Source: a virus
Taxonomy: Duplodnaviria > Heunggongvirae > Uroviricota > Caudoviricetes
DNA: 64,000 bases
Virus record (IMG/VR): IMGVR_UViG_2939127364_000001
Reading direction: 5' to 3' (one strand)
Under the pieces are notes generated by a model. The model was not told the origin of the DNA. It worked only from the letters and a program-made list of their open reading frames with translations, and searched no databases. The position numbers and the translations under genes were made by a program. Positions 13,503 to 59,258 of the stretch are shown piece by piece. The first letter of the stretch is position 1; every line of letters starts with the position of its first letter.

Positions 13503-13522
13503 TTGCCCGCCATTAAGTAAAT
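13503..13522. promoter_or_regulatory. Motif B-like site between J and tail fibre genes
   Basis: ttaagtaaatgcttacctat, next to hairpin ggcggg-ttatccttg-cccgcc. Confidence 0.3.
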
Positions 13523-13562
13523 GCTTACCTATTTTTACCGATATAAAAATTTTTTTCCACCA

Positions 13563-20410: not shown

Positions 20411-20430
20411 CCTGTCAGCGCCACAATGAT

Positions 20431-20464
20431 AGTAAATTAGTACTTACTTATCTAGATACTTAAG
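20431..20464. promoter_or_regulatory. Motif B cluster between M-like and L-like genes
   Basis: agtaaattagtacttacttatctagatacttaag. Confidence 0.3.
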
Positions 20465-26923: not shown

Positions 26924-26940
26924 TGCGCTAATAGTAAGTA
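26924..26940. promoter_or_regulatory. Motif B, perfect palindrome TAAGTATATACTTA
   Basis: agtaagtatatacttac, ~45 nt upstream of the major tail gene start. Confidence 0.35.
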
Positions 26941-26957
26941 TATACTTACCAATTGAG

Positions 26958-32346: not shown

Positions 32347-33921
32347 TCACTCGTTCTCTTGAGTAGATGAGTCCCCATTCCCTCGGGGTTGATCTTGCCC
32401 GCTTTCTTGGGCTGCACCTTGATCATAAGTAAGCACTGACTTATTTTCAAGGGTATTTAGATCATTTTTTGGCGGAAAATTCAAGAGATCTTTATCAAAT
32501 TCCTTTTTCATCGCCTCAGTAATGTTCGGGAAAATCTTCTCAATAAGCATTTCCATCTGGTGACGACGTACAGAGTCCGGTGCCTGAAGTAATGACAGTT
32601 TCTCGGCAACAGAAAATTCATCTGTAAGGCCACGAATATCGAAACTTTCTGGATACGCAATTAAAGAGTGGTCTTCGTCCAGATCTGCCCCCATCCATTT
32701 CGCAACCAGTAGCATGATTTGGCGTTCAGCCCTTTCCAGACGCTCTGCTTTTGTGACAAGCAAGCTATTTACACGCTGGAAGTCATACATTTTTGCGGCA
32801 CCAGATGAATTATCGATTCCCTGTGCGTTGTCCTGCTTCGTTCGCTCACCAGCTACACCAACTGAATGGTAGATTTCGTTAATCACCGTCTTAATCGTAG
32901 TGATGATCATCTGAGCTTGTTTCGGGTCTGGTGACAGATAAAACGGCTGGTTTCCACCTTCAGAATCGTAGGTGAAGACTCGCTTTGTGCCCATTTCAAG
33001 CACTTTAGTGTGGTTTTCATCACCAGGTAAAAGCGACTGTACCGGTATAGCCAACTGGCTAAATGTCTGATCCTGAATAATGGCATCAAGGTTTGACAGA
33101 TAGTTTGCAACCGCACGATCAAGATAAGCGATATCATCGATCAACGATGGGCTGAAATACGGTGATTCACTTTCTCCAATACAATCAACAGGAAACACAG
33201 GAACTACGCCGAGATTATGCTCACCGCTATCCTCTAAAATAACTTTTGCCTGACGGCGACCTGCTCCACCAGCGCCCTTCTTCACTTCCTCACGGAACAG
33301 ATACCACTCGTTTTGTGTCCACAGACGATAACGTTGGTATTCCTGACCTGTAGAAGTAAAAGGATCTGCGTCATCACGAGCGACTTCCACAATTAACGCC
33401 CACAACATATTCCCGTCGTCGTCCCATGCCACATCCAGCATTTGCTGAGGTGAAATCCAGTAGGCGTAGGCGCGAGCATCTTTCTTTTTCTCGTCAGCTA
33501 CTGACTCAACATCACCACTCATCGTGCTATCGACAACAACCCATATGCGACCGTAAATAGACGACTGCAAATCAATAGCGGCCATAAATGAGTCAATAGA
33601 GGCATTCTGGCGAGTCGCACGTTTCCAGAAATTGCGGATCTGCTCTGGTGCCTCTTCGATATTTCTATGAATGTCTTCTTTAAAGAGATATTTGTTGATG
33701 AGGTTTACCACCTCACGAGTGTGGTTGAAGCGATAAGCACGTTCAACTCGCTCCTTAAACTCCTGATCTCCCTCTTTAAAGTAACGAAAGATATTGTCTG
33801 TAAACCAACCACGCCCGCCAGCGTAAGTGCTGGCGAGGAAGTCCCAATGTTCTTTTTTCTTTTCGTATTCCGGGTGGCGTCGCGCCACCAGATCCTTAAT
33901 TTGTTTGTCGTTCAATTCCAT
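32347..33921 (-). CDS. Portal protein
   Basis: 524 aa, immediately downstream of the large terminase. Confidence 0.75.
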   Translation of the reverse strand: MELNDKQIKDLVARRHPEYEKKKEHWDFLASTYAGGRGWFTDNIFRYFKEGDQEFKERVERAYRFNHTREVVNLINKYLFKEDIHRNIEEAPEQIRNFWKRATRQNASIDSFMAAIDLQSSIYGRIWVVVDSTMSGDVESVADEKKKDARAYAYWISPQQMLDVAWDDDGNMLWALIVEVARDDADPFTSTGQEYQRYRLWTQNEWYLFREEVKKGAGGAGRRQAKVILEDSGEHNLGVVPVFPVDCIGESESPYFSPSLIDDIAYLDRAVANYLSNLDAIIQDQTFSQLAIPVQSLLPGDENHTKVLEMGTKRVFTYDSEGGNQPFYLSPDPKQAQMIITTIKTVINEIYHSVGVAGERTKQDNAQGIDNSSGAAKMYDFQRVNSLLVTKAERLERAERQIMLLVAKWMGADLDEDHSLIAYPESFDIRGLTDEFSVAEKLSLLQAPDSVRRHQMEMLIEKIFPNITEAMKKEFDKDLLNFPPKNDLNTLENKSVLTYDQGAAQESGQDQPRGNGDSSTQENE

Positions 33922-33932
33922 TTGAATAACCT

Positions 33933-33952
33933 TAGATAATTACTTACCTATC
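33933..33952. promoter_or_regulatory. Motif B-like site at the terminase/portal junction
   Basis: tagataattacttacctatc, overlapping the terL stop and the portal SD. Confidence 0.3.
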
Positions 33953-35950: not shown

Positions 35951-36013
35951 AAGCCTGCTTCCGTATATATTTAATAAGTTACTTATTATTTATATATACA
36001 GAAGCAGGTCTTT
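35951..36013. repeat. Palindromic AT-rich element, copy 2
   Basis: 35954..36003 identical to 3315..3364; flanked by a perfect 8-bp inverted repeat cctgcttc / gaagcagg. Confidence 0.6.
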
Positions 36014-36032
36014 AAATAAGCTCCCAGACCGA

Positions 36033-36299
36033 TTACATCACCAGTAACTTCGCTTTGGCTCGACCTAAAGTGGTTAACCCAAGAGTTCGGCGGTGATAGC
36101 GATTGTCACTGCGTTGGCGCGTATGCCCTTTCTCCACCAGCCCCTTTTTTATCAGAGCGCGAATTGAGAACTGGATACTTTGCTTGGTTGTCTTGTACGG
36201 CAAAACTTCAAGCAATTCGTCCAGATCAAGTAAATGACCTCGCTCATAACCGAGATTGAGCGTTTTGATAATGTCCTTTTGTTTATCGGTTAACGTCAT
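36033..36299 (-). CDS. Small winged-helix-like DNA-binding protein (hypothetical)
   Basis: 88 aa, basic C-terminus; 10 nt downstream of the GNAT-like gene. Confidence 0.4.
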   Translation of the reverse strand: MTLTDKQKDIIKTLNLGYERGHLLDLDELLEVLPYKTTKQSIQFSIRALIKKGLVEKGHTRQRSDNRYHRRTLGLTTLGRAKAKLLVM

Positions 36300-36308
36300 G
36301 GCAAATCC

Positions 36309-37208
36309 TTATGCCGGTAAAGCAATTTCTAACGGTTTATCCAAAGGTTGTTTGTCGAATGCCAGCAGTGGCAGCGTGTCAGGCAGCCGACGACCAAAGT
36401 CAGGGTTTCGGTACACACCATACAACGGAGACGTAAAGCTCAGGTTGTGAATGTCCTTGAGCAGCTTCACAATGCTGGCCTCGTCCACCAGACTGTCGGC
36501 AATGTCCTGAATCGTCGTGCCACGATTCCGCCCAGCTTTTGCCAGGGAACTGTTCTTGTGGTAGTCCGCTACCAGATCACGCAGTGCACGGCGACGACGA
36601 GACTCGCTCATTGCGAACAACTCTTTGACGATCGCCTCGTTATCACCCGGGTCGGAACGGAAATGGCGCTGGAATACACGCAGTGCACTTTCATAGCTCT
36701 TCGGTCGCTCAGGGCGGATGAACTTAAACCCTGCTTTCATGGCGAAGGGATTGTATTTGCTCATCGAGGACTGGATCTCAATGATTGGCCGGTCGTGCAT
36801 CCTGCTAACCAGGTTAATCATTCGATAGGAGACGCCGACACCGCGGTACTGAGTGTCCACAACGGAACGGCTGATCACCGCAAAGTTGTTGTTCACGTAC
36901 CGCCCCCAATACTGGTTGGCCACGGTGGTATTGGTGGTTGGCTTCAGCTTAGGAAACATGCGATGGCGAGGCGCCAGCAGCAGTTTCGGGTAAGCCATAA
37001 CCACGACGCCCACCAGCCGGTCGTCCAGTTCGCAGCGATAATACGTTGGCGCAAACGGCTTACCATCCGTCTTGTAGTGCAGCGACTTCAGCGCGTGCCA
37101 GTCTTCAACCGTGCCTTTGGTAACGGTCATACGCTCCAGAAAGTCCAGATGACGCGGGAACTCTTCCGGGCGGTAGCGTTTGATGATGATGCCTGTCATG
37201 TCGATCAC
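36309..37208 (-). CDS. GNAT-domain protein with C-terminal extension (hypothetical)
   Basis: 299 aa; GNAT motif-A-like VVDTQYRGVGVSYRMINLV and motif-B-like NPFAMKAGFKF; 4-nt overlap with the upstream 84-aa gene. Confidence 0.5.
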   Translation of the reverse strand: MIDMTGIIIKRYRPEEFPRHLDFLERMTVTKGTVEDWHALKSLHYKTDGKPFAPTYYRCELDDRLVGVVVMAYPKLLLAPRHRMFPKLKPTTNTTVANQYWGRYVNNNFAVISRSVVDTQYRGVGVSYRMINLVSRMHDRPIIEIQSSMSKYNPFAMKAGFKFIRPERPKSYESALRVFQRHFRSDPGDNEAIVKELFAMSESRRRRALRDLVADYHKNSSLAKAGRNRGTTIQDIADSLVDEASIVKLLKDIHNLSFTSPLYGVYRNPDFGRRLPDTLPLLAFDKQPLDKPLEIALPA

Positions 37209-37459
37209 CTACGCTCGATATTGGCATTGATGAAGTCCAGGCGAAGCGATTCCATCGCCCCAACCATGACGTATGGACGCCCACCGTTATGCCAGCAATC
37301 CAGCACACTGCCGTCGTTGTTGATCATCAGCAGTGCCAGGCTCTGGCTTTTGCCTTCTCTGGCGTACTGGAGTGCTTCTTCCAGCAGGCGGATGACTTCA
37401 ACGTTGTTGTTGTCAGCCTCTTTCGATGGCTTCAGCTCTACGATCTTCAAATCAGGCAT
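37205..37459 (-). CDS. Small hypothetical protein (operon member)
   Basis: 84 aa; overlaps both neighbours (translational coupling). Confidence 0.4.
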   Translation of the reverse strand: MPDLKIVELKPSKEADNNNVEVIRLLEEALQYAREGKSQSLALLMINNDGSVLDCWHNGGRPYVMVGAMESLRLDFINANIERR

Positions 37460-38090
37460 ATTCCACCTTCACGCGTTCTTTGTAGTGCTTGGTGATCTGC
37501 ATATCCGGGCGCAGCGCGTTCTTCAGGTCTTCGTGAGTCGTCGCCACCATTACCGTCGCACCAACCTTTCGAGCGGCACGCTGGAGGTTAGATGCCACAA
37601 CCTGAGCGGTTACACGGTCGAGAACAGCGCCGAACTCGTCAGCAGCCCACACTTTAGCGCCTGACTCAATCAGTTTGGCAATCTTGAGACGATATTTCTG
37701 ACCGTCTGACATTTCAGAAGGCTTGCGAACAAACAGATATGCATCGTTCAGACCAGCCATAGATAACAACCCAAGCGCATCACTGGTAGTTTTGCCCAGT
37801 TGGTCAATGACGTTAACCTCATTATCGAAGGTAAAATCATCGATGGAGGCTACAGACAGCCCTTCATCCTTCATCTGTCGTTGCAACTCGCGCAGCACAA
37901 CGGATTTGCCGGATCCGGATTGGCCGGTGATGTACACCACATCGCCCTGCTTCACTTCCAGCTCCAGATTGTCGTAAAGCGTCCACTCTTTTTCGTCCAG
38001 ACCAAGCCCGAACGACTCAGCGATTTCCAACGTGCGCGTGGTTTTATTTACGCGTGTCTGAAACGATACGTTGATGATGTATTTGCTCAT
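37452..38090 (-). CDS. Small ABC-type ATPase (nucleotide-binding domain only)
   Basis: 212 aa; Walker A GQSGSGKS, signature-like SDGQKYR, Walker B VWAADEFG, H-loop TTHE. Confidence 0.6.
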   Translation of the reverse strand: MSKYIINVSFQTRVNKTTRTLEIAESFGLGLDEKEWTLYDNLELEVKQGDVVYITGQSGSGKSVVLRELQRQMKDEGLSVASIDDFTFDNEVNVIDQLGKTTSDALGLLSMAGLNDAYLFVRKPSEMSDGQKYRLKIAKLIESGAKVWAADEFGAVLDRVTAQVVASNLQRAARKVGATVMVATTHEDLKNALRPDMQITKHYKERVKVEYA

Positions 38091-38755
38091 GCAGCCATCT
38101 CCCCGGAAGAGATCTTCTCCGCATATGCCACAAATGCGTCTACCCCGCTTTCTCCTGTCATTTCTTCCATGTGGGCAAGCAAATCACCAACAACAATGGC
38201 AGAGCCAGCAGGGAGCGTTTTAAAGCCCAATACGTCGACAACACGTACTTCTTCCGCTGCAACTTCACGACTGATCTCGGTGTGTTCATCCTTCTGTCGT
38301 TTAGTTTCTTCGCCAAGATCGATAACTAGCGAGTCGGTGTCCATTTCTTCTGTCATGCTGCCAACGAGAACATTCAACTCACGCTCTTCAAAGCCGAAAA
38401 CCTCGATATCGTCCAGAACAAGCGACTCAAGCTCTTTTTGTAGCTTAATTGCATCGTAATCAATGCTGGCAAGTCGGTTATCTTCAAGACGCTTCGCACG
38501 AACCTCGTCATCACTGAGATCATCGCGAACAATAACCGGTACGCGCTCAAGTCCAGCAAAAATTGCAGCCTCACGGCGGCCGTGGCCAGTAATAATTACG
38601 TCGTTCTTATCGACCGTAATTGGCTGGTCAAATCCGCGCTTTTTAATGGCTGCGGCCAGATCTCGGATCTGCTGTTCATCATGCTTTTTGGCATTCATCT
38701 CATAGGGAATAAGATCTGCCGGGTCGCGATATACGATTTCAAACTTTTTGGTCAT
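38087..38755 (-). CDS. ParB N-terminal-domain protein 2
   Basis: ParB-type box ...ITGHGRREAA...ERVPVIV; start placed at ATG 38755, which overlaps the upstream stop as TAATG (the track ORF extends to 38788). Confidence 0.6.
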   Translation of the reverse strand: MTKKFEIVYRDPADLIPYEMNAKKHDEQQIRDLAAAIKKRGFDQPITVDKNDVIITGHGRREAAIFAGLERVPVIVRDDLSDDEVRAKRLEDNRLASIDYDAIKLQKELESLVLDDIEVFGFEERELNVLVGSMTEEMDTDSLVIDLGEETKRQKDEHTEISREVAAEEVRVVDVLGFKTLPAGSAIVVGDLLAHMEEMTGESGVDAFVAYAEKISSGEMAA

Positions 38756-39453
38756 TACATACGCTCCTTGTAGTAGTCGACCAGCCATACCAGAGCCTCA
38801 CCAGCGTTCTCCATTTCATTACCGGTGTTAATAGCCTGCTCTTTGATGATGTTTTTTATGGTTTCTGCAACACGATCTGACGCATCGAAAGTTACTTTGA
38901 AGCGCATGGTCTGATGTTCCGCACCCACACGTTCGGTTTTCTCTCGTTTGTCGGTATCGACAGGCTCATCACTACCACGAGACAACGCCTCCAGTGCTTC
39001 AAGGTCGATTGCCGCCTCTTTTGCTAAAACCATCGAGATTTCGTCGTCATACGGGGCGATTTCAGACAGTTGATAGTCAAGTTCTGACTGAATTTCTTCA
39101 ATGAAGCGTTGCAATGCGATTTGGTCGTCTTCACCGTATCGCTCGTTGTCCACCAGTGACATCTGTTTAGCTACGACATCGCTAATTTTGCCCACAGAAA
39201 GCACCGGAACCGTTGAAATTCCTTGCTCAATAGCAGCACGCCAGCGATGTTCGCCGCCGAGGATTTCAAAAAATCCATCTTCAAGTTCACGAGCCAAAAT
39301 TGGCTTAAAAAAGCCCAATTTTTCGATAGAACCTTTCAGTTTTTCAAAATTCTGCGCACCAACCGAATTGGTGTTCCAGGTATTCGGGCGAAGGTTGGCA
39401 ACATCAACCTGCAAAATCGTGATTTTTACATCCATTTTATTGCTACAATCCAC
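38755..39453 (-). CDS. ParB N-terminal-domain protein 1
   Basis: 232 aa; ParB box GGEHRWRAA...VPVLSV; first gene of the coupled operon. Confidence 0.6.
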   Translation of the reverse strand: MDCSNKMDVKITILQVDVANLRPNTWNTNSVGAQNFEKLKGSIEKLGFFKPILARELEDGFFEILGGEHRWRAAIEQGISTVPVLSVGKISDVVAKQMSLVDNERYGEDDQIALQRFIEEIQSELDYQLSEIAPYDDEISMVLAKEAAIDLEALEALSRGSDEPVDTDKREKTERVGAEHQTMRFKVTFDASDRVAETIKNIIKEQAINTGNEMENAGEALVWLVDYYKERM

Positions 39454-39471
39454 TAAGTAATCACTTACTTA
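39452..39471. promoter_or_regulatory. Motif B in divergent region between ParB-like operon and SF2 helicase
   Basis: ctaagtaatcacttacttat. Confidence 0.3.
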
Positions 39472-39517
39472 TTATAATAGCCAAATAACATACAAAAGGC
39501 ACTAAGGAAAGAGGTTT

Positions 39518-41077
39518 ATGACTGTTCGGATTGTATCTAACGCAGTTAATGCGCTTATTTCTGGCGCAGATGACAAGGTAAAGCAAATGGTGCAACAGAT
39601 GTTGAGCTACGAAGTCGAGACTGGCGACTGGAAGGGCACAAGCACGATGTTCAACTGGAGTAAAAACTCGTTCCCTGCTGGCTTTGCCAAGCCTGTAGCG
39701 GCGAACTTGAACAAGGCGGGCATCAAATGTGTTCATATCCGCAAAGACAAAGCCCCGGCGCTTGGTAAACCAAATCCGGCGGTTAACCCATTCCCATACA
39801 ATCCTGATTATGCGTATCAGGATCAGACTGTGGAAACACTGGTTCGAGAGGGAATGATGATTGCGCAGATCGCTACTGGTGGCGGGAAATCTAACGTTGC
39901 CTGCAAAGCAGCTGCACGTATCGGTCGAATGACATTATTTTTAACAACCCGCTCTGTTCTGATGTTTCAAATGGCCGAAAACTTCCAGAGATCCATCGAC
40001 TACCGCGCCGAAAATGGCGAACCGTGGTTAAAAGACCAAAAGGTTGGAGTCATTGGCTCTGGTGAGTTCCAGGTATCACGACATATCAACGTCGCTACAG
40101 TTCAAACTCTGGCAAGTTTCCTTGAAGAACCACCACGCGATGCAACTCCAGATAAGAAGAGCTACCACCTCAAACGTCGGGACTTGGTGAAACGCTTCCT
40201 TTCAAGTGTGTCTCTGCTTATTCTGGAAGAGGCGCATGAGTCTTCAGGTTCTAATTTCTATGACATTGCCAGATTATGTGTGAACGCAGACTATCGTCTG
40301 GCACTTACGGCCACGCCGTTCATGAAGGATTCTACAGAAGCCAACATGCGTCTGATGGCTGTGGCTGGGCGAATTGAAATCAAAGTCACAGAAAAGTACC
40401 TGATTGATCGAGGCATTCTGGCAAAACCGTACTTCCTTTATCATAAAGTTGCCTACAAGCCAGACGAGGTCAGAATAAAGGCGGAACTTGCCAACAAACA
40501 CCTCAATTTTAGAGTAGGTATGAGCACAGCCTACCAAAAGGCTTATCAGTTGGGCATCGTGTATAATTTGGGACGTAATGAGGCCATTGTTCGCGAAGCA
40601 TTGCTCTATAAGCAACATTCTCTCAATTGTATGACTCTGGTTCGTCTTAAACGCCACGGGAAAATCCTGATGGAAATGATGAAAGAGTCCGGCCTTAGAG
40701 TTGACTTCATTTATGGGGAATCGAACCAGTCGACAAGGCAAGCAAAGCTGAACAGTTTAGCGTCTGGTGAAATAGATGTTTTAATAGGCTCGACTATTCT
40801 GGATGTTGGTGTTGATGTGCCAAGCGTTGGTGCGGTCATTCTTGCTGGTGGTGGGAAAGCAGAAGTTGAAATGAGACAGCGTGTCGGTCGTGGCTTACGA
40901 GCCAAGAAGAATCAGGCAAACGTGTGTTTTATCACTGATTTCATTGACATTAGCAACAAATACCTGTTGTCTCACTCTTATGAGCGAAAACACATCATCG
41001 ACACCACACCTGGCTTTGCAGAAGGTGTATTGCCTATTGATGGCGCATTCGATTTTGGAGTTCTGAAACGAGATTAG
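39518..41077 (+). CDS. Superfamily 2 DEAD/DEAH-like helicase
   Basis: 519 aa; motif I ATGGGKSNV, motif II LILEEAHE, motif III TATP, motif VI QRVGRGLR. Confidence 0.75.
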   Translation: MTVRIVSNAVNALISGADDKVKQMVQQMLSYEVETGDWKGTSTMFNWSKNSFPAGFAKPVAANLNKAGIKCVHIRKDKAPALGKPNPAVNPFPYNPDYAYQDQTVETLVREGMMIAQIATGGGKSNVACKAAARIGRMTLFLTTRSVLMFQMAENFQRSIDYRAENGEPWLKDQKVGVIGSGEFQVSRHINVATVQTLASFLEEPPRDATPDKKSYHLKRRDLVKRFLSSVSLLILEEAHESSGSNFYDIARLCVNADYRLALTATPFMKDSTEANMRLMAVAGRIEIKVTEKYLIDRGILAKPYFLYHKVAYKPDEVRIKAELANKHLNFRVGMSTAYQKAYQLGIVYNLGRNEAIVREALLYKQHSLNCMTLVRLKRHGKILMEMMKESGLRVDFIYGESNQSTRQAKLNSLASGEIDVLIGSTILDVGVDVPSVGAVILAGGGKAEVEMRQRVGRGLRAKKNQANVCFITDFIDISNKYLLSHSYERKHIIDTTPGFAEGVLPIDGAFDFGVLKRD

Positions 41078-41079
41078 TT

Positions 41080-41358
41080 ATGAGCGAAAAGAAAACAACT
41101 TATTGCCAAGTGGCATTGTCTGATAAGGCCAATGAAAAACTTGGAAAATTTCAAATAAAACTCAAAGAGAAAAAAATCAAGATGTCTAAGGCTGAAGTTA
41201 TCAATGCCATTCTGGAGACGATGACTATGGCTGAATTTGACAAAGTCACATCTGCTGTTGGGGTTTCCGCTAAGACGCGTGAGAAAATCATGCGCATCTA
41301 TGAAAACTCCAATATGACAAAAAAAGATTTAGAGGAAATACTGAGCAGGTTGCCGTAA
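41080..41358 (+). CDS. Small hypothetical protein
   Basis: 92 aa, starts 3 nt after the helicase stop. Confidence 0.45.
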   Translation: MSEKKTTYCQVALSDKANEKLGKFQIKLKEKKIKMSKAEVINAILETMTMAEFDKVTSAVGVSAKTREKIMRIYENSNMTKKDLEEILSRLP

Positions 41359-41423
41359 CATTTCATATTTACCCCCTATCTACTAATTCTATGATGTGCT
41401 CACTTGTTAGAAAGGAGCACATC

Positions 41424-41990
41424 ATGAGTTGGTTAAAAGAATTATCATTTGTTGACACCACTGGCGCTAAGAAAAATCATTCTTTCTGGAAAGTCAGCGA
41501 TCCTTCTGATTTTCTTGTTGGTGCTAATGCTGCTTTTGAATTGCTTAACTTTTATCAACGTTATCCAGAAATGAAACACAGTCCACTCCTGTACAGAATA
41601 ACAAACGATATGAATAGGTCTGGTTTATTATCAAGTGAGTCAGCGAAAGGCTTTTTTAGCAAAATTACGCCTCACATATCATTCGATGCAACAAACGAAA
41701 TTGATTATCTATCCACGAAATCTCAAGAACAATTATCTGTACCACCTGAGAAAAAAGAAAGACGAATTGCCAGCATTGAAAATATATCGAAAGAGCTTCG
41801 CACAACAACGTTGAGGCTGCTGAACTTTCTTACGCTGCTTAATTGGATAGATGATCAAACATTGATTCCATCAACAGATGCGTTGGATAACAGAGTCCTT
41901 AGGCTGAACAAAAAATCGCAATTTGGTTTTGTGTTCACCAAAAAAGGTGAAGATTTAATCAAAAGAAAATATAGATTATTGAATGATTAA
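41424..41990 (+). CDS. Hypothetical protein (AT-rich moron gene 1)
   Basis: Track ORF 41391..41990; ATG at 41424 follows GAAAGGAG; low GC; a 9-bp inverted repeat gatgtgctc/gagcacatc spans the SD. Confidence 0.5.
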   Translation: MSWLKELSFVDTTGAKKNHSFWKVSDPSDFLVGANAAFELLNFYQRYPEMKHSPLLYRITNDMNRSGLLSSESAKGFFSKITPHISFDATNEIDYLSTKSQEQLSVPPEKKERRIASIENISKELRTTTLRLLNFLTLLNWIDDQTLIPSTDALDNRVLRLNKKSQFGFVFTKKGEDLIKRKYRLLND

Positions 41991-42130
41991 TAGTCTACAT
42001 GCAGGTGTATGAGAGCACCTGCATGTGACATTCGTCACGTTTTTTGAAACATATACCTCCGGCTGAAAAAAGATCTTGATTGGCTGAACGATATTTGTAG
42101 GCTTACCTATGTTTAGAACCGGAGGCATGA

Positions 42131-42706: not shown

Positions 42707-43126
42707 ATGAAAGCAAAAAACTTAATGATTCTAATGCTAACCACGTCACTAATTGGGTGTTCGTCTTCGTCTATATCTATTTCAAAGGCAAAGGATGCAC
42801 CTCAAAGCAGAATATTTAAATATCAAACACCACATGAGTCTAGTCTAACAATAGTTCGAGACAAAGGGCTGGTTGGTTCTGCATGTAACGCTTCCATTTT
42901 CATCAATGGAGAAACGGCTGCAAAGCTAGAACCTGGTGAAAAAGCAACTTTCTACCTTAACGAAGGAGAGTGGATCGTTGGGACATCAATTGAAAGTTCA
43001 GGTCTTTGCGCATTTAACCCCTCCAGGATGGAACGAGAAATAAAGCTAAAGCAGGGCGACTCGAAAACATATCGGGTTTTCACTACCTGGGATGGTACAA
43101 TGGACATATTGCCAACCACTTTATAA
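42707..43126 (+). CDS. Lipoprotein (superinfection-exclusion candidate)
   Basis: 139 aa; signal peptide with lipobox LTTSLIGCSSS. Confidence 0.6.
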   Translation: MKAKNLMILMLTTSLIGCSSSSISISKAKDAPQSRIFKYQTPHESSLTIVRDKGLVGSACNASIFINGETAAKLEPGEKATFYLNEGEWIVGTSIESSGLCAFNPSRMEREIKLKQGDSKTYRVFTTWDGTMDILPTTL

Positions 43127-43130
43127 TGAT

Positions 43131-43652
43131 ATGACGACGAAAGACATCACCTACGGCATACCGGCTGAAGTCTGGCCGCGAGACTACGAACATGCAGAGC
43201 GCACCTTGCTCTTCTGGCGGAGTGCAAAATTTCCTGTAAGAGTCACTCTCGAAGACGGCCAAGTGTTTTGCATGTATGTCTACGGGCTATTGAGCGCAAG
43301 AAATAAGCTGAACCTCACACCAGATCCGCTTAGCAACACAAATCGTATAAGGCTCCCTCTTGAGCGCATTAGCACAATTGAGTCGGGCATAGAAGAGGTT
43401 GACACTTCATTCACAGGTCGACTAACGCTAAACAATGAACAGATGGTTAATCAGCCATCACGTCGTGACTTTTTTAAGATATGTCGTCAGGCTTACCAAA
43501 ACGGCAAATCTATAAGGGTCTACATGGCAGACGGTCGCGAAATTGAGGGAACGTCAGATGGCGTTGACGCCTGTCTAGTCACACTTAAGTTGGAAGACGG
43601 TAGAAAAATACTTATTTTCTTCGATTGGGTTGAACGAATCCTTCCGTTTTAA
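43131..43652 (+). CDS. Hypothetical protein
   Basis: Track ORF 43092..43652; start set at ATG 43131, just after the lipoprotein stop. Confidence 0.4.
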   Translation: MTTKDITYGIPAEVWPRDYEHAERTLLFWRSAKFPVRVTLEDGQVFCMYVYGLLSARNKLNLTPDPLSNTNRIRLPLERISTIESGIEEVDTSFTGRLTLNNEQMVNQPSRRDFFKICRQAYQNGKSIRVYMADGREIEGTSDGVDACLVTLKLEDGRKILIFFDWVERILPF

Positions 43653-44600: not shown

Positions 44601-44613
44601 TTAATGGAATCTT

Positions 44614-44634
44614 GCGCCCACTATGGGCGCTTTT
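44614..44634 (+). terminator. Terminator hairpin GCGCCCACTATGGGCGC, copy 1
   Basis: gcgccca-cta-tgggcgc followed by tttt. Confidence 0.6.
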
Positions 44635-44647
44635 AAGGAGCTTAATC

Positions 44648-44878
44648 ATGTTTATTCTTATCGCTGGCGTTAACGTGCGCAATGAATATTTTGTTAATCG
44701 CATCGCTGGGATCGCTGGTTACGCTGGGCGCGCAGTCGAGCTTATAAATGAAACAACGCGCAAAATTGACTTATTGAGCGACCAGGAGCGAAAAAAAGCA
44801 GACGTGAACGACGCTGATATTTTTTTAATGTTAAAAGCGTTTGTAGAAATGGGATTTAAAATCAGTTTACACAAATAA
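44648..44878 (+). CDS. Small hypothetical protein (76 aa) flanked by duplicated terminator
   Basis: ATG at 44648 preceded by AAGGAG; the track start at 44612 lies inside the terminator hairpin. Confidence 0.45.
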   Translation: MFILIAGVNVRNEYFVNRIAGIAGYAGRAVELINETTRKIDLLSDQERKKADVNDADIFLMLKAFVEMGFKISLHK

Positions 44879-44884
44879 AATCGA

Positions 44885-44907
44885 GCGCCCACTATGGGCG
44901 CTTTTTT
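44885..44907 (+). terminator. Terminator hairpin GCGCCCACTATGGGCGC, copy 2
   Basis: Identical 17-bp hairpin followed by tttttt. Confidence 0.6.
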
Positions 44908-51838: not shown

Positions 51839-53872
51839 TTACTTAACCTGGTGGCCTGGTTTAGCACCAGCATCCGGGCTTAACAGGAAGATATCTTTCC
51901 CGCCGGGGCCAGCAGCCATCACCATGCCTTCGGAGATACCGAAGCGCATTTTACGCGGAGCCAGGTTAGCCACCATAATGGTGTGACGACCAATCAGTGC
52001 CTGTGGGTCTGGATAAGCAGAACGGATGCCTGAGAAGACATTACGCTTTTCACCACCGAGATCCAGTGTCAGACGCAGCAGTTTGTCAGAACCTTCGACA
52101 AACTCCGCGTTTTCAATCAGCGCCACACGCAGGTCAACTTTGGCGAAGTCGTCAAAGGTGATGGTTTCCTGAATCGGGTCGTCAGCCAGTGGGCCAGTTA
52201 CCGGTGCAGCTGTGGCTTTCACTTCTTCTTTGGATGCTTCCACCAGTGCTTCCACCTGTTTCATATCGATACGGTTATACAATGCCTTGAACGGATTCAC
52301 TTTATGGCCCAGCAGCGGTTGCTGGATACCATCCCAGGTCAGTTCTGTATTCAGGAATGCTTCTGCACGTTCAGTCAGTTTCGGCAGTACCGGTTTCAAG
52401 TACGTCATCAGCACGCGGAACAGGTTAATGCCCATAGAGCAAATCGCCTGCAGATCGGCATCGCGTCCTTCCTGCTTCGCCACCACCCACGGAGCCTGTT
52501 CATCGACATATCGGTTAGCCAGGTCAGCCAATGCCATGATTTCACGGATAGCTTTACCAAATTCGCGGCTTTCCCATGCTTCGCCAATCACTTCAGCGGC
52601 ATCAGTAAAGGTTTTGTACAGTTGCGGGTCAGCCAGTTCGCTTGCCAGCACGCCGTCAAAACGCTTGTTGATAAAGCCTGCATTACGGGAGGCCAGGTTA
52701 ACCACTTTGTTCACGATATCGGCATTCACGCGCTGAACGAAATCCTCCAGGTTGAGATCGATATCATCAATGCGCGAAGAGAGTTTCGCAGTGTAGTAGT
52801 AACGCAGGCTGTCGGCGTCAAAATGATTCAGCCAGGTGCTGGCTTTAATAAAGGTGCCGCGAGACTTGGACATCTTCGCGCCGTTCACCGTCACATAGCC
52901 GTGAACAAACAGGTTGGTCGGCTTGCGGAAGTTGCTGCCTTCCAGCATGGCAGGCCAGAACAGGCTGTGGAAGTAAACAATATCTTTACCGATGAAGTGG
53001 TACAGCTCGGCTGTGGAGTCTTTCTTCCAGTATTCATCGAAGCTGGTGGTATCGCCGCGCTTGTCGCACAGATTCTTGAAGGAACCCATGTAGCCAATCG
53101 GCGCGTCCAGCCAGACGTAGAAATATTTGCCCGGCGCGTTCGGAATTTCAAAACCGAAGTAAGGCGCATCGCGGGAGATATCCCACTGTTGCAGGCCGGA
53201 TTCAAACCACTCCTGCATTTTGTTCGCCACCTGCTCCTGCAACGCACCGCTGCGGGTCCATGCCTGCAACATTTCGCTGAAAGAGGGCAGATCAAAGAAG
53301 AAGTGTTCGGAATCACGCATTACCGGGGTAGCGCCAGAAACCACCGATTTCGGCTCGATCAATTCAGTCGGGCTATATGTTGCGCCGCAGACTTCACAGT
53401 TATCGCCGTATTGATCTGGCGCTTTACATTTCGGGCAGGTGCCTTTCACAAAACGATCCGGCAGGAACATGCCTTTTTCCGGGTCGTACAACTGAGAGAT
53501 AGTGCGGTTTTTAATAAAACCGTTCTCTTTCAGGCGAGTATAGATAAGCTCAGACAGCTGGCGGTTCTCTTCGCTGTGCGTCGAGTGATAGTTGTCATAG
53601 CTGATGTTAAAGCCTGCGAAATCAGTCTGGTGTTCCTGACTCATTTCGCCAATCATCTGCTCCGGTGTGATACCAAGCTGCTGTGCTTTCAGCATGATCG
53701 GCGTACCGTGGGCATCGTCGGCACAGATGAAATTAACCTCGTGGCCGCGCATTCGCTGGTAACGAACCCAGACATCAGCCTGGATGTGCTCCAGCATATG
53801 GCCGAGGTGGATTGAGCCGTTAGCGTACGGCAGCGCGCACGTCACCAGAATTTTCTTCGCGACTTGGGTCAT
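51839..53872 (-). CDS. metG: Methionyl-tRNA synthetase
   Basis: 677 aa from [26 protein letters not shown] (HIGH-type motif), KMSKS present, C-terminal ...KPGHQVK; start set at ATG 53872 rather than the upstream-extended track ORF. Confidence 0.95.
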
Positions 53873-54029
53873 AGTAGGCATTACTTCTTTGTAGTGAAAA
53901 GGGGCTTGATAGTAACAAAATGGCCTTATGTCTGCCATGTGATAACAGCATTTCTCATAAATGATTAAATGTCGTAGCTGGAGTACACTACAAGGCGACA
54001 ATTGCGCAAATTAAAATAAAGGAGACGGG

Positions 54030-55130
54030 ATGAGCGAGTCCAAATCGCCGGATGCCCTGAGAGCAATGGTAGCCGGTACGCTGGCTAATTTTCAGCACCC
54101 AACCCTGAAACACAACCTGACTACGCTTAAAGCGTTACACCATGTTGCGTTGATGGATGACACACTGCATGTCGAACTAATCATGCCTTTCGTGTGGAAT
54201 AAGCCTTTTGAAGACCTGAAAGAGCAATGTAGTGGTGATCTGCTCCGTATCACTGGCGCAAAGGCTATTGACTGGAAGCTGTCGTACAACATTGCCACGC
54301 TTAAGCGCGTCAAAAACCAACCAGGCATTAATGGCGTTAAGAACATTATCGCCGTCAGCTCAGGCAAGGGCGGCGTGGGTAAATCCTCCACGGCGGTAAA
54401 CCTGGCACTGGCGTTGGCTGCTGAAGGTGCGAAAGTTGGTATTTTGGATGCCGATATCTATGGTCCATCAATTCCAACCATGCTGGGCGCGGAAAACCAA
54501 CGTCCAACCTCACCTGACGGTACTCACATGGCACCTATCATGTCTCATGGCCTGGCAACCAACTCTATTGGTTATCTGGTCACCGACGACAATGCAATGG
54601 TGTGGCGTGGACCGATGGCCAGCAAGGCGCTGATGCAGATGTTGCAGGAAACTCTATGGCCTGATCTGGACTATCTCGTTCTCGATATGCCGCCGGGCAC
54701 TGGTGATATTCAGTTGACGCTGGCGCAGAACATTCCTGTAACTGGTGCGGTTGTGGTAACTACGCCGCAAGACATCGCGCTGATCGATGCGAAGAAAGGC
54801 ATTGTGATGTTCGAAAAAGTCGAAGTGCCGGTACTGGGTATCGTCGAAAACATGAGTGTGCATATTTGCAGTAACTGCGGTCATCACGAGCCAATTTTTG
54901 GCACCGGTGGCGCACAGAAACTGGCCGAGAAATACAACACGCAGTTGTTAGGCCAAATGCCACTTCATATCTCTCTTCGTGAAGATCTGGATAACGGAAC
55001 ACCAACCGTTATTAGTCGTCCAGATAGCGAATTTACGGCTATTTATCGTGACCTCGCAGATCGCGTTGCCGCCCAAATGTATTGGCAAGGTGAAGTAATA
55101 CCTGGCGAAATCGCATTCCGCGCAGTGTGA
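54030..55130 (+). CDS. apbC: Fe-S cluster carrier ATPase ApbC/Mrp
   Basis: 366 aa; P-loop SGKGGVGKSS; CxxC motif ICSNCGHH; divergent from metG as in E. coli. Confidence 0.9.
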   Translation: MSESKSPDALRAMVAGTLANFQHPTLKHNLTTLKALHHVALMDDTLHVELIMPFVWNKPFEDLKEQCSGDLLRITGAKAIDWKLSYNIATLKRVKNQPGINGVKNIIAVSSGKGGVGKSSTAVNLALALAAEGAKVGILDADIYGPSIPTMLGAENQRPTSPDGTHMAPIMSHGLATNSIGYLVTDDNAMVWRGPMASKALMQMLQETLWPDLDYLVLDMPPGTGDIQLTLAQNIPVTGAVVVTTPQDIALIDAKKGIVMFEKVEVPVLGIVENMSVHICSNCGHHEPIFGTGGAQKLAEKYNTQLLGQMPLHISLREDLDNGTPTVISRPDSEFTAIYRDLADRVAAQMYWQGEVIPGEIAFRAV

Positions 55131-55166
55131 TAAAAGGCGGTGCATTGCACCGCCTAATCAGTTCTC

Positions 55167-55556
55167 CTACATCACGGGACAATCATCAAACTCGCCACTT
55201 CTTGCGTCGTTGATAATGTGAGTGATCACACCAAACACGGCATTGCTGCCCGTGCATCCATCGTCATCCTTTGGCAATGCTTCCTTCTTACCGGTTCTTA
55301 AATCCTCCAGATGCTGACGTGGGTACTTCCGGTATCTTTTTACGCGATATTCCCCATCCAGAGCGCATACAAGCAGAGAACCATCAACCGGGGTAAGTGA
55401 GGAATCGACCACCAGCAATGCACCCTGTAATATTCCCTCACGATGATGACTATCAGCTGCCCTCATGAAGTAGGTCGCTGAAGGATGTCTAATTATCTGC
55501 TGATCAAGAGAAATACGGCTCTCAGCATAATCCGCCGCAGGAGAAGGGAAGCCCAT
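55167..55556 (-). CDS. UmuD'-like S24 peptidase domain protein (lacks the N-terminal arm and cleavage site)
   Basis: 129 aa beginning MGFPSPAADY...HPSATYF...LLVVDS...DGEYRVKRY, aligning with UmuD from its Gly25 onward; convergent with apbC. Confidence 0.7.
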   Translation of the reverse strand: MGFPSPAADYAESRISLDQQIIRHPSATYFMRAADSHHREGILQGALLVVDSSLTPVDGSLLVCALDGEYRVKRYRKYPRQHLEDLRTGKKEALPKDDDGCTGSNAVFGVITHIINDARSGEFDDCPVM

Positions 55557-55574
55557 AGCGTTTTCACCTCAGAG

Positions 55575-55594
55575 TACTGTTTATCCATACAGTA
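55575..55594. promoter_or_regulatory. LexA (SOS) box
   Basis: tactgtttatccatacagta = CTGT-N8-ACAG, 20 nt upstream of the UmuD'-like start. Confidence 0.65.
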
Positions 55595-55654
55595 TACATT
55601 AAAGATGCTTGAAGTGTGCAATAGCGCGATGCTTTGCGCTCGTCTGGTGGCGCG

Positions 55655-55906
55655 TTATTTTTTGGCTATATCTTCTTTCTGATATACCGGATCGTTTCCT
55701 TTTGGCAGCAGGAGGCTTAACTGCCGGTAGTGCCGTAGCCGTTCCATGAAATAGGTGCGCAGGTTCTCAGGTTGCTCACGGGCTACCTGTTCCGCTATGA
55801 CGGGTATGTTCAATCGCTCTTTGTAGGCAACCCCCCTGGCAGCCAGGTCAACGTTAACTTTATTCCTTTCTTCCTGGCTTTTGGCTGCTATGTTCCAGTT
55901 GCTCAT
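55655..55906 (-). CDS. Small hypothetical protein
   Basis: 83-aa ORF upstream of the UmuD'-like gene, separated from it by ~100 bp containing the LexA box. Confidence 0.4.
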
Positions 55907-56258
55907 GTTTAAGGCTCACATTTCCAGATGGTATTCTGAACACCCGTACCAGGCGCAAGATGAGGGTTAGCGTTCGCGCTATGCAGATATACAGCTTTAG
56001 ACTTTCCGTATTGCTGACAGGCTTTATCTGCGTTTTTTGGCAGGCTATCCAAGCCAATACCAGCCATCGAACTGGATGCTAACCTTTTCACCGTCATTGT
56101 ATTGCACCATCGCACACCCAGACATAGCTAAAATCGCACCGACAATACCGCTTTTCCAAAAAGCTCTAATTAGGTCATTCGTTACCTAATGTCCGAACTG
56201 CTAAAGCATCCAAGTTGCTGTAGAATCACATCCAATTACTTAAACCTGAAATAAGTGG

Positions 56259-57821
56259 ATGAAAATGACAAGTATTCAACAACGTGCAGAGCTTCATCGC
56301 CAGATCTGGCAAATTGCTAACGATGTCAGGGGTTCAGTCGATGGATGGGATTTTAAGCAGTACGTTTTGGGCGCGCTTTTTTACCGTTTTATCAGCGAAA
56401 ATTTTTCCAGTTATATTGAAGCCGGTGATGACAGTATCTGTTATGCGAAACTGGATGACAGCGTAATTACTGATGACATTAAAGACGATGCCATCAAAAC
56501 TAAAGGCTACTTCATCTACCCCAGTCAGCTTTTCTGCAACGTAGCTGCGAAAGCAAATACTAATGACAGACTGAATGCAGATTTAAACAGCATCTTCGTT
56601 GCTATCGAAAGTTCTGCTTACGGTTATCCTTCAGAAGCTGACATCAAAGGTTTGTTTGCTGATTTCGATACCACCAGTAACCGCCTGGGTAACACCGTTA
56701 AAGATAAAAATGCCCGCTTGGCTGCGGTTCTGAAAGGGGTTGAAGGGCTAAAACTTGGTGACTTCCATGAACATCAGATTGACCTGTTCGGTGACGCCTA
56801 TGAGTTCCTGATTTCTAACTATGCGGCGAATGCCGGTAAGTCCGGCGGCGAGTTCTTTACACCGCAGCACGTCTCTAAGCTGATTGCACAACTGGCTATG
56901 CACGGGCAGACCCACGTTAACAAAATCTACGACCCGGCAGCAGGCTCCGGTTCGCTGTTGTTGCAGGCGAAAAAACAGTTTGATGACCATATCATCGAAG
57001 AAGGTTTTTTTGGTCAGGAAATCAACCATACGACCTATAACCTGGCGCGTATGAACATGTTTTTGCACAACATCAACTACGACAAGTTTGATATCAAGCT
57101 GGGTAATACACTGACTGAGCCGCACTTCAGAGATGAAAAACCGTTTGATGCCATCGTTTCTAACCCGCCGTATTCGGTGAAATGGATTGGCAGCGATGAC
57201 CCGACGCTGATTAACGATGAACGTTTTGCCCCGGCTGGCGTTCTGGCCCCCAAATCCAAAGCTGACTTTGCGTTTGTATTACATGCGCTGAACTATCTTT
57301 CGGCCAAAGGTCGCGCTGCGATTGTCTGCTTCCCAGGCATTTTTTACCGTGGCGGCGCGGAGCAGAAAATCCGTCAGTATCTGGTCGACAATAACTATGT
57401 CGAAACCGTGATTTCACTGGCACCGAATCTGTTCTTTGGCACCACTATTGCCGTCAATATTCTGGTGCTGTCTAAACATAAAACGGATACCAAAGTTCAG
57501 TTTATTGATGCCAGCGAACTGTTCAAAAAAGAGACTAACAACAACATTCTGACCGATGCTCATATCGAACAGATTATGCAGGTATTTGCCAGCAAGAAAG
57601 ATGTTGCTCATCTGGCGAAATCTGTTGCGTTTGAGACTGTTGTCGCGAATGACTATAACCTGTCGGTGAGCAGCTATGTGGAAGCGAAAGATACTCGCGA
57701 AATTATCGATATCGCTGAGCTGAATGCTGAGCTGAAAACCACGGTCAGCAAAATCGACCAGTTGCGTAAAGATATTGATGCGATTGTTGCTGAGATTGAA
57801 GGTAGCGAGGTACAGGCATGA
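56259..57821 (+). CDS. hsdM: Type I restriction-modification system methyltransferase subunit
   Basis: 520 aa; N6-adenine MTase motif [12 protein letters not shown]; SAM-binding region; N-terminus [17 protein letters not shown]. Confidence 0.9.
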
Positions 57822-59137
57822 GCGAGCTGAGTTATCTGGAAAAACTGCTGGATGGGGCTGAGGTTGAGTGGGTAGCATTAAATAAATTAGCAACTTTTTT
57901 AAAAGGGAAGTCTTTACCTAAAGAAAAAATAACTCCAGATGGCAATAGATATTGTATTCATTACGGTGAGCTTTTCACTCATTATGGTCCCATAATTGAC
58001 AAAGTATGCTCAAAAACAAACCAAGCAATCAATGAGTCAATTCTATCTGAAAAAAATGATGTTCTAATGCCAACGTCAGACGTTACACCAAGAGGTTTGG
58101 CTACAGCTAGTTGCATTCAAGAAAGTGGCGTTATTTTAGGCGGCGATATTTTGATTATTAGATGCTCTGGTGTTGATGGTAGATATCTAAGTAATTTCAT
58201 AATAAATAACAAAAAAAAGATATTGCAAATGGTTAAAGGTTCTACTGTTTATCATTTGTATGCTAAAGATATAGGTAAATTACTTATCCCCATCCCTTGC
58301 CCCAACAACCCGGAAAAGTCGCTGGCTATCCAGTCTGAAATCGTCAGGATTCTGGATAAATTTACTGCACTTACCGCTGAGCTTACCGCTGAGCTTAGCA
58401 TGCGTAAAAAACAATACAACTACTATCGCGACCAGTTGTTGAGTTTTGATGATGAGCAGGAAAAACCTATTTATCTGGAAAAATTGCTGGATGGGGTTGA
58501 GGTTGAGTGGTTGCCATTGGGGAAACTAGGTGAATTAGTTCGTGGAAATGGATTGCCTAAGTCTGATTTTACCGAATCTGGGGTTCCTGCCATACACTAT
58601 GGTCAGATATATACTTTTTACGGATTATCTACTGAAACAACAAAGTCATTTGTTTCCCATGAAACGGCGAAGAAGCTTAAAAAGGTTAACTCTGGTGATG
58701 TTGTTATTACTAACACAAGCGAAAATTTTACTGATGTTGGTAAGGCGCTTGTTTATCTAGGTAAAGAGCAAGCTGTTACTGGTGGCCATGCAACTATTTT
58801 TAAGCCAAATAGCACTATTATTGGGAAATACTTTGCCTATTTCACGCAAACGGATTCTTTTGCAAATGGGAAAAGGAAATACTCCAAGGGAACTAAAGTA
58901 ATTGATGTGTCTGCATCGGATATGGCGAAAATTATTATCCCTATCCCCTGTCCGGAAAATCCGGAAAAATCCCTTGCCATTCAGTCTGAAATCGTTCGGA
59001 TTCTGGATAAATTCGACACCCTGACTAACTCCATCACCGAAGGTCTCCCGCGTGAAATCGAGTTGCGCCAGAAACAATACGAATACTACCGTGATTTACT
59101 GTTCAGTTTCCCAAAACCTGAAACTGTCAGTAATTAA
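57818..59137 (+). CDS. hsdS: Type I restriction-modification specificity subunit (type IC-like architecture)
   Basis: 439 aa; two AT-rich target-recognition regions separated by GC-richer conserved repeats ([23 protein letters not shown]... and [23 protein letters not shown]...); central TAELTAEL. Confidence 0.9.
58370..58396 (+). repeat. Tandem 12-bp repeat (cttaccgctgag x2) in hsdS central conserved region
   Basis: Encodes TAEL-TAEL; copy number of this repeat distinguishes EcoR124I from EcoR124II specificity. Confidence 0.7.
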
Positions 59138-59258
59138 TTGACCATTGCTACCGACCGGGCCACCTTAACACCCGGTCAGTATATAGACTATTTTTTTACG
59201 CGCCGGAAGCCCCCTTAACTCCCTTCCGGCCCTTGCCAGACGGCACAAAGGATGCGCT

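Follow-up and report, generated by a model that had tools for sequence, protein, structure and literature searches.

The UvsW helicase of phage T4 is the product of a late gene and removes branches and R-loops. KorB of plasmid RK2, a ParB-fold clamp and repressor that depends on nucleoside triphosphates (NTPs), has a dozen palindromic operators across the genome, and the operator of Arc from phage P22 is placed between the -35 and -10 elements of the divergent Pant/Pmnt promoters. The locus described here invites comparison with all of these systems. It lies in a stretch of 64,000 nucleotides of a tailed-phage genome (IMG/VR record IMGVR_UViG_2939127364_000001; the whole stretch is referred to as the window) and consists of a superfamily 2 (SF2) helicase gene and a 92-aa gene, at 39518-41358, which diverge from an operon with two ParB-like genes, here called ParB1 and ParB2. 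On balance, we consider it slightly more likely than not that a UvsW-type helicase and a small ribbon-helix-helix (RHH)-like partner form a two-gene operon at a divergent switch with a conserved operator.

Judged by its sequence, the window is an SSU5-like phage-plasmid. Region 36000-42000 was 98.3% identical to Escherichia phage Cyrano, known in E. coli LF82 as the phage-plasmid pLF82. Identity was 85% with Salmonella phage SSU5 and ~80% with Klebsiella SSU5-like elements. The annotated gene order of this region agrees between Cyrano and SSU5: the helicase gene is followed 2 nt on by a 279-bp hypothetical gene, and the divergent unit comprises two ParB-like genes, an ABC ATPase, a small open reading frame (ORF) and, as its last genes, an 'ABC-ATPase/acetyltransferase (MK0520)-like' gene (p299 in this work) and a small DNA-binding gene (p88). 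The genes have been annotated in close relatives, and both proteins of the helicase unit are of known kinds. A preliminary description of the locus had correctly recorded the ORFs of 519 and 92 aa, their divergence from the ParB-like operon and the presence of a recurrent motif B in the spacer, which is a perfect palindrome more frequent than chance. Some of its details had to be revised. The 'DEAH-type' helicase is indeed an SF2 helicase, but its motif II (EEAH) is of the DExH type and its family is UvsW; the small gene does lie directly downstream, after a gap of two bases; and the shared '65-bp region' measures 64 bp when counted from the GTG start of ParB1, or 82 bp from its alternative ATG.

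The two divergent units were expressed very differently in the lysogen. Normalised RNA sequencing (RNA-seq) counts for the Cyrano lysogen, grown overnight in lysogeny broth, were taken from the S1 Table of Misson et al. (PMC9928086). The gene for the 92-aa protein (CYRAN_117), named in that study among the few Cyrano genes expressed in the lysogen, had a count of 114, or 11.7 times the median of the Cyrano genes (9.8), and the helicase gene (CYRAN_118) had a count of 46, or 4.7 times the median. ParB1 (CYRAN_119) was at the floor with a count of 5, the remainder of the ParB-like operon (CYRAN_120-123) had counts of 7.8-9.5, and the ORF following the small gene (CYRAN_116) had a count of 9. For comparison, the S24-peptidase repressor-like gene had a count of 148 and the ParA/Mrp-like ATPase gene CYRAN_99 a count of 92 (PMC9928086). 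Expressed as fragments per kilobase of transcript per million mapped reads (FPKM), the contrast between the helicase operon and the ParB-like operon was 16- to 60-fold, and each of the five conditions showed it (PMC9928086). In the plasmid-prophage state, then, the helicase operon is on and the ParB-like operon off, which argues against the co-regulation that the preliminary description had suggested on the basis of the shared region, at least in the lysogen. A strong stem-loop (-22.9 kcal/mol, z -5.6) is predicted 3' of the small gene; it coincides with the 12-fold drop in RNA-seq signal from CYRAN_117 to CYRAN_116 and is the probable end of the two-gene unit.

Because it behaves like a late gene set and is off in the lysogen, the ParB-like operon, a conserved unit of five or six genes, is probably not a plasmid partition system but a set of silent late genes. 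The ParB N-terminal, CTPase-fold domain (PF02195) was matched by ParB1 with an E-value of 3.3e-13 and by ParB2 with 1.5e-8, and both proteins have the same layout, in which an acidic linker separates the ParB_N domain from a C-terminal domain that is short and conserved (KTHxIMRFKVP...TNAGDAL in ParB1, GFK...F(M)A..E..TG..G.DAF in ParB2). ParB1 retains a GGEHRxRA box and ParB2 has GHGRR. No helix-turn-helix (HTH) was detected in the C-terminal halves, and profile searches of the PDB with the C-terminal domains detected no homologue of known structure. By eye these domains looked RHH-like, an assignment that was rejected when hhalign against CopG returned a probability of 0.9% and the PDB profiles returned none. 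When compared with ParABS systems, the ATPase encoded beside the ParB genes is ABC-type and not ParA, and a ParA/Mrp-like ATPase is encoded elsewhere in the window. The ABC-type ATPase and p299 (36309-38090, minus strand) resemble a split form of the archaeal COG2401/MK0520 'ABC ATPase fused to acetyltransferase', and the Cyrano annotation of p299 follows this MK0520-like architecture. Bacterial fusions of a ParB fold to an acetyltransferase that bind GTP were described in a 2025 survey (bioRxiv 10.1101/2025.10.10.680097).

The SF2 core of the helicase is complete, with a Walker A motif, a DExH box (L-E-E-A-H-E, not a literal DEAH), motif III and the arginine-finger motif VI. The motifs ATGGGKS, LEEAHE, LTATP and QRVGRGLR are intact and were invariant across an alignment of 29 homologues. 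Pfam placed a ResIII/DEAD domain at residues 99-270 and a Helicase_C domain at residues 364-462. By sequence, matches in the PDB included archaeal XPB (E 2.4e-12) and T4 UvsW (E 1.1e-8). The AlphaFold2 (AF2) model had a predicted local distance difference test score (pLDDT) of 90.1, and a Foldseek comparison of this model with the PDB returned T4 UvsW (2oca) first, with an E-value of 5.9e-24, followed by XPB chains. The N-terminus of the helicase aligned with those of its homologues, with W38, G40, F52, P53 and G55 invariant, and the UvsW_N domain (PF21241) was detected in 18 of the 29 full-length aligned homologues, the best match (3.6e-8) being above the gathering score. As the best fold match was T4 UvsW and UvsW_N was found in the homologues, the helicase was placed in the UvsW family on sequence and model grounds, with its N-terminal domain supported via the homologues. 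It is 99.4% identical to CYRAN_118, annotated as 'UvsW helicase', and the replication-module helicases of Herelleviridae are more distant relatives (~34% identity over the C-terminal half).

Weak matches of the helicase core to PADLOC PbeA (5e-23) and to the dnd restriction helicases of NCBIfam, together with the expression of both genes in the lysogen, would fit an anti-phage defence or counter-defence cargo module, by analogy with Dnd/Pbe-type helicases. We regard such a role as very improbable. The PADLOC matches (PbeA and type IV restriction endonuclease models) covered the generic SF2 core alone and were far under the family cut-offs, the 92-aa protein had no PADLOC match, and neither a nuclease nor a sensor domain is present. 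Moreover, the best fold match was UvsW, and the gene lies in the conserved backbone of lytic and temperate relatives, not in variable cargo.

The 92-aa gene is probably translationally coupled to the helicase, and in several distant loci the start of the small ORF overlaps the helicase stop (ATGA). The 92-aa protein has the same sequence as CYRAN_117 and falls into PHROG 1466, a group of unknown function; taken alone, it had no match in Pfam, NCBIfam, PADLOC or the PDB. Pairwise searches showed a small family confined to Enterobacterales and Photobacterium, and an exhaustive HMMER search yielded 15 clusters only. In distant loci (Magnetospirillum, Acinetobacter, Novosphingobium and others) the helicase gene is also immediately followed by a small ORF, and when the family was compared with these ORFs by hhalign, the two matched over their full length with 94% probability (E 1.1e-7). 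The combined-family profile added further members, every one of them downstream of a helicase and on the same strand, and relatives of the 92-aa gene were found in this position in 16 of 27 diverse loci with sufficient flank, one of them a lambda-like phage without the ParB operon. In alphaproteobacterial relatives the gene is replaced by an unrelated coiled-coil ORF that overlaps the helicase stop. Family profile A2 matched CopG in hhalign with 87% probability (E 3.9e-6) over residues 3-40 of 45, which is the whole RHH fold, and a hidden Markov model search of the PDB with the family profile found CopG at E 0.012. Approximately the first 45 residues of the family align with CopG, and a conserved motif, MTxE(D)LxxLL, closes the tail. 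In a low-confidence model of the 92-aa protein, residues 15-30 and 37-45 are helical, as they would be in an RHH fold. From these profile comparisons we provisionally describe a fast-evolving family with an N-terminal RHH-like module that is probably DNA-binding.

It is possible, if rather doubtful, that the 92-aa protein is not a transcription regulator but an accessory subunit that recruits or modulates the helicase and is kept at a fixed ratio to it by translational coupling. The start codon only 2 nt past the helicase stop and the ATGA overlaps would suit such a subunit, as would the conserved C-terminal motif, which is unrelated to the RHH part, the lack of correlation between the gene and the palindrome, and the fact that the two genes stay together even in a phage of another type (contig L114, see below). 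A fixed ratio sits less well with the mRNA of the small gene, which was 2.5 times that of the helicase in the lysogen (PMC9928086), and the coiled-coil ORF that substitutes for it in alphaproteobacterial relatives is unrelated. No similarity to T4 UvsW.1 or any known helicase partner was found; as a counterpart of UvsW.1 the protein was rejected after PDB searches with both the protein and the family profile, up to an E-value of 10, showed no similarity.

The palindrome is the sole recurrent element of the spacer between helicase and ParB1. It abuts the GTG start of ParB1 and sits 18 nt upstream of the ATG annotated in Cyrano. Among 28 diverse loci, 24 had a helicase-proximal copy, 22-74 nt upstream of the helicase ATG, and positions T5 and A14 were essentially invariant. 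A -10-like hexamer, defined by at least 4 of 6 matches with A2 and T6 required, began within -2 to +3 of the helicase-side end of the palindrome in 16 of 24 distant loci, against a background of 6%; when all palindrome copies were pooled, an abutting -10 was enriched 13-fold. An AAGG(C)A element was also found in distant loci at a distance from the helicase start similar to that of the Shine-Dalgarno region in the window. The possibility that the palindrome itself serves as a -35 element, with a -10 element 17 bp downstream, was discarded, as no consistent hexamer was seen there by eye and the consistent -10 abuts the palindrome. An RNA hairpin was likewise considered and rejected: since the mismatches between the arms were not biased towards G-U (19 G-U, 14 A-C, 91 other) and the hairpin would be weak (-3.7 kcal/mol), the palindrome fits a DNA site better than an RNA structure. 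It is best read as the putative operator of a phage-encoded DNA-binding protein, because its sequence is conserved in alpha-, beta- and gammaproteobacterial relatives.

Further copies of the palindrome were found throughout the late arm. With up to 3 mismatches the window contained 18 matches where 2.5 were expected, a number not attained in any of 100 shuffles, so the palindrome occurs beyond chance. Fifteen of these 18 lie between 3212 and 39471, in the minus-strand late arm, and the strong copies occupy short gaps, with one at a gene 3' end, 5-100 nt upstream of gene starts. Across 34 diverse loci the pattern TAAGTMA-N4-TKACTTA, with up to 2 mismatches, had 109 copies against 4.7 expected, and the further copies lay at roughly matching offsets across loci on both sides of the helicase. 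A few bases past several of the late-arm copies there is a GC-rich stem-loop without a T-tract (GGCGGGCAAGGATAACCCGCC, GGCGCTGACAGGATGTTAGCGCC; 7905-7956, 13469-13513 and 20410-20432), after which the Shine-Dalgarno sequence of the next gene follows. Separately, a 55-nt imperfect palindrome, CCTGCTTCCGTATATATTTAATAAGTTACTTATTATTTATATATACAGAAGCAGG, is present in two copies that are 98% identical (3315-3369 and 35954-36008) and has a predicted fold of -30.5 kcal/mol (z -9.2). At its centre are motif-B half-sites (TAAGT/ACTTA) without a spacer. The two copies flank the entire packaging and structural arm, one between p88 and the TerS-like gene and the other past the last late gene, and could terminate transcription in both directions, mark a boundary or have a role in packaging.

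A candidate for the protein that binds the palindrome is ParB1 and/or ParB2, acting as a KorB-like NTP-dependent clamp and repressor that autoregulates its operon and influences the helicase promoter. ParB1 is encoded in every locus with its start always 11-20 nt from the palindrome, it retains the GGEHRxRA box, its C-terminal domain is very conserved, and the multiple intergenic palindromes recall the KorB operator (OB) regulon. We nevertheless find this distinctly doubtful, as neither HTH nor RHH was detectable in the C-terminal halves and the palindrome is missing from loci L096, L097, L107 and L108, which have kept ParB1, as well as from L114, which has no ParB1. In addition, the ParB genes are silent in the lysogen and therefore cannot keep the late arm off there.

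To follow the locus across relatives, species-representative genomes were searched with a profile of 29 helicases, which yielded 37 loci in alpha-, beta- and gammaproteobacteria; helicase identity was between 39% and 92%, and many of the loci are on contigs of 100-118 kb. The helicase divergently adjoins ParB1-ParB2-ABC-p299 in 32 of the 33 loci with sufficient flank, and p88 was detectable in most. The same gene map was found in Pseudomonas phage nickie and Rhizobium phage RHEph10, which are annotated lytic-type relatives. By tblastn, p299 was present in 31 of 50,697 phage records, with genus counts equal to those of carriers of the full-length helicase, and the best 80 matches of a p299 profile in viral contigs were close relatives only. 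An independent distribution of helicase and ParB-like operon, set beforehand as the outcome that counts against a link between them, was thus not seen. The genes for major capsid protein, portal, TerL, TerS-like protein, p88, p299, ABC ATPase, ParB2, ParB1 and helicase were colinear across all loci, and the DNA past the helicase and the small gene was variable, with tRNAs in nickie and a ParA-like gene in RHEph10. As the whole packaging and head block is equally colinear, the adjacency is not specific evidence of joint function; it may be a frozen backbone order and is by itself no proof of a functional link. The exception, L114 (an uncultured betaproteobacterium contig, 6374-8563), has the helicase, possibly split or frameshifted, and an RHH-like small gene without the ParB operon, on a phage contig with genes for a lambda-type portal, an S49 protease and capsid E, which suggests that these two genes are able to move together as a cassette. 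Of the helicase-ParB link suggested in the preliminary description, the physical part stands, and a functional link is neither established nor excluded. In another locus, L110 (5294-10581 of the Halomonas sulfidaeris chromosome, AP019514), a chromosomal copy of the entire block was found whose p299, TerL, portal and helicase genes are split over several frames, with perfect palindrome copies still present; it is apparently a decaying integrated relative.

This conserved neighbourhood could also mean that the helicase and the ParB-like operon are one late DNA-processing machine, with a task such as preparing or clearing branched concatemers before they are packaged. The two units would be co-induced from the shared spacer at the onset of lytic growth, the helicase level in the lysogen being basal. 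The divergent adjacency persists down to 39% helicase identity and is shared by nickie and RHEph10, the TerS-like and TerL genes come immediately after the operon, conservation of the block ends with the helicase, and T4 uvsW is a late gene with a role in clearing branches and R-loops. Set against this are the unspecific nature of an adjacency within an equally colinear block, the 5- to 20-fold difference in lysogen expression in all five conditions, and L114 with its helicase and small gene but no operon. Nor was the helicase found to be fused or otherwise directly linked to the ParB proteins. We therefore consider a single late machine unlikely.

According to the reading that we favour, a divergent switch, the two genes would form an operon of the SSU5-like phage-plasmid that is read from a sigma-70-type promoter with the putative -10 box TATAAT. 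By analogy, the helicase would most likely remodel branched DNA (forks, Holliday junctions, R-loops) in the replication and recombination of the element, and the 92-aa protein may regulate its own operon or guide the helicase to DNA. Relative to the helicase promoter, the palindrome would cover positions from about -31 to -14, as a repressor site might, and some seven further copies of the putative operator occupy gaps between genes of the late arm. While the element is maintained as a plasmid prophage, the helicase operon is transcribed and the ParB-like operon, with which the packaging and late arm begins, is silent, so that the 64-bp spacer would be a divergent switch point and not a site for co-expression of both units.

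Several observations weigh against this reading. The RNA-seq data come from uninduced or macrophage conditions only, and joint induction of the helicase and the ParB operon in lytic growth is possible. The helicase promoter is a putative one, a consensus match whose support consists solely of conservation and the RNA-seq signal, and most late-arm copies of the palindrome have no abutting -10. For the helicase, UvsW_N had no match in residues 1-98 of the window protein even at an E-value of 10, so that this protein is below the Pfam threshold. For the 92-aa protein, no RHH match was found in Pfam, the RHH assignment is marginal, and the AF2 model, built with close homologues only, was poor (pLDDT 57) and unsuited to a fold search. 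Finally, the presence of genes like the 92-aa gene and the presence of the palindrome were uncorrelated across loci (odds ratio 1.1, p = 1), and the putative beta-strand residues of the protein vary while the palindrome motif stays constant. Because of this absence of co-occurrence and the variable beta-strand facing a constant motif, the 92-aa protein is probably not the binder of the conserved palindrome, and it was set aside as a candidate for that role.

A wider proposal, to which we give a low probability, is that TAAGTMA-N4-TKACTTA is the operator of a lineage-wide circuit in which a conserved phage protein holds the ParB-like, packaging and late arm off in plasmid lysogeny and sets the level of the helicase operon, which would make the spacer the lysis-lysogeny late switch of the SSU5 supergroup. 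The circuit would extend over siphophages and phage-plasmids of 100-120 kb (SSU5, nickie-like, RHEph10-like) and uncharacterised elements of alpha-, beta- and gammaproteobacteria. Candidate binders are the two ParB-like proteins, either of which might act as a clamp in the manner of KorB, and the RHH-like helicase partner that is expressed in the lysogen.

The positions of the features in the window are listed in Table 1.

Table 1. Features of the helicase locus, its divergent neighbours and other parts of the window
Feature	Position	Strand	Remarks
Divergent ParB-like operon	36033-39453	-	Head of packaging and structural arm
p88	36033-36299	-	Weak winged helix-turn-helix-like match
p299	36309-37208	-	Weak GNAT-like match (Acetyltransf_10, E 0.038)
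84-aa ORF	37205-37459	-	
ABC-type ATPase, 212 aa	37452-38090	-	PF00005
ParB2	38087-38788	-	ParB_N domain
ParB1	38755-39453	-	ParB_N protein; GTG start, alternative ATG at 39435 is the Cyrano-annotated start
Spacer helicase-ParB1	39454-39517		64 bp from the ParB1 GTG
Perfect 18-bp palindrome (motif B), putative operator	39454-39471	strandless	TAAGTAA-TCAC-TTACTTA
Putative -10 box of helicase promoter (P_hel)	39473-39478	+	TATAAT, one base past the palindrome
Shine-Dalgarno region of helicase	39504-39514	+	Purine-rich, aaggaaagagg
UvsW-family SF2 (DExH, 'EEAH') DNA helicase gene, 519 aa	39518-41077	+	ATG start, TAG stop ending at 41077
92-aa gene	41080-41358	+	ATG start; N-terminal RHH-like module and helical tail
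Strong stem-loop 3' of small gene	41385-41430	+	RNA fold; overlaps Shine-Dalgarno sequence and start of next ORF
Motif-B copy TAGATAATTACTTACCTA	33933-33950	strandless	12 nt upstream of portal-like gene start
Other strong motif-B copies	3212-3229, 7957-7974, 13514-13531, 20433-20450, 26935-26952, 32426-32443		
AAACAAnTTGTTT copies	2430, 5357, 35873, 35898, 45999, 47496, 48394, 48878, 51687, about 51740		
FljA-like 'repressor of phase-1 flagellin'	43092-43652		
Full-length methionyl-tRNA synthetase	51839-54001	-	Cargo/maintenance region
Mrp/ParA-type ATPase	54030-55130		Cargo/maintenance region
S24 peptidase	55167-55556	-	Cargo/maintenance region
Complete type I restriction-modification system, hsdM-hsdS-hsdR	56259-62375		Cargo/maintenance region

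Beyond the locus, a second recurrent palindrome, AAACAAnTTGTTT(TCT), is present in ~10 copies, mostly in the early/plasmid arm, with two tandem copies directly upstream of the TerS-like gene. These copies are probably operators for a different regulator, which might be the S24-peptidase repressor. Positions 51839-62375 make up the cargo and maintenance region. A 1577-aa ORF at 13563-18296 (minus strand), of the size of a tail or tape-measure gene, contains four tandem 99-nt (33-codon) repeats at 14550-14945 that are 62-72% identical to the reference copy. A 32-nt element with GCGCCCACTATGGGCGC followed by TTTT occurs at 44603-44634 and 44874-44905; both elements are terminator-like hairpins and stand on either side of a small ORF (44612-44878).

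In the searchable literature, we found no description of the lineage-wide palindrome, of the conserved pairing of helicase and RHH-like gene, or of the ParB-like operon as a silent late operon. SSU5-like phage-plasmids are common in clinical Enterobacterales and include pHCM2 of S. Typhi, pMT1 of Y. pestis and resistance-carrying Klebsiella plasmids. The locus offers handles on these elements: a defined, putative operator sequence kept in very distant relatives, a helicase/small-protein operon that is on in the lysogen, and annotated 'ParB-like partition' genes that are probably silent late genes rather than a partition system. If the palindrome is a true late switch, it would provide a handle for inducing or curing SSU5-like elements.

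When compared with T4 UvsW (PDB 2OCA), the helicase has its domains in the same order, with two RecA-like domains after a small N-terminal one; both are phage-encoded, and in both cases a small ORF follows the gene. The two proteins are only ~18% identical, however, motif II of the window helicase is EEAH, and its N-terminus is under the UvsW_N threshold. The window-type helicase is expressed in the lysogenic plasmid state, in contrast to the late lytic T4 uvsW, and the 92-aa protein downstream is without similarity to UvsW.1. By sequence, the nearest solved relatives are the archaeal and eukaryotic XPB/Rad25 proteins (6P4F, 5TNU; E 2.4e-12), with a fold match nearly as good and a sub-threshold match to the Pfam family ERCC3_RAD25_C, although the window helicase has no Bax1-like nuclease partner and stands in a phage context.

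The remaining comparisons concern the switch. As in CopG of pMV158 and Arc/Mnt of phage P22, the protein encoded after the helicase is small and expressed in the lysogen, and its ~45 N-terminal family residues span the whole CopG fold; it differs in an additional helical tail of ~45 residues, in being encoded second and not first in its operon, in a presence that is uncorrelated with the palindrome, and in that its RHH assignment is marginal. The palindrome of the window would lie between -35 and -10, like the Arc operator at Pant/Pmnt. With KorB/OB of the IncP plasmid RK2 the locus shares a ParB-fold gene that adjoins one copy of a palindrome recurring at many intergenic places, and one palindrome copy that overlaps a promoter, here a putative one, in the divergent region. 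Unlike the KorB system, it has no detectable HTH in ParB1 or ParB2, a partner ATPase that is ABC-type and not ParA/IncC, and ParB-like genes that are silent in the plasmid state.

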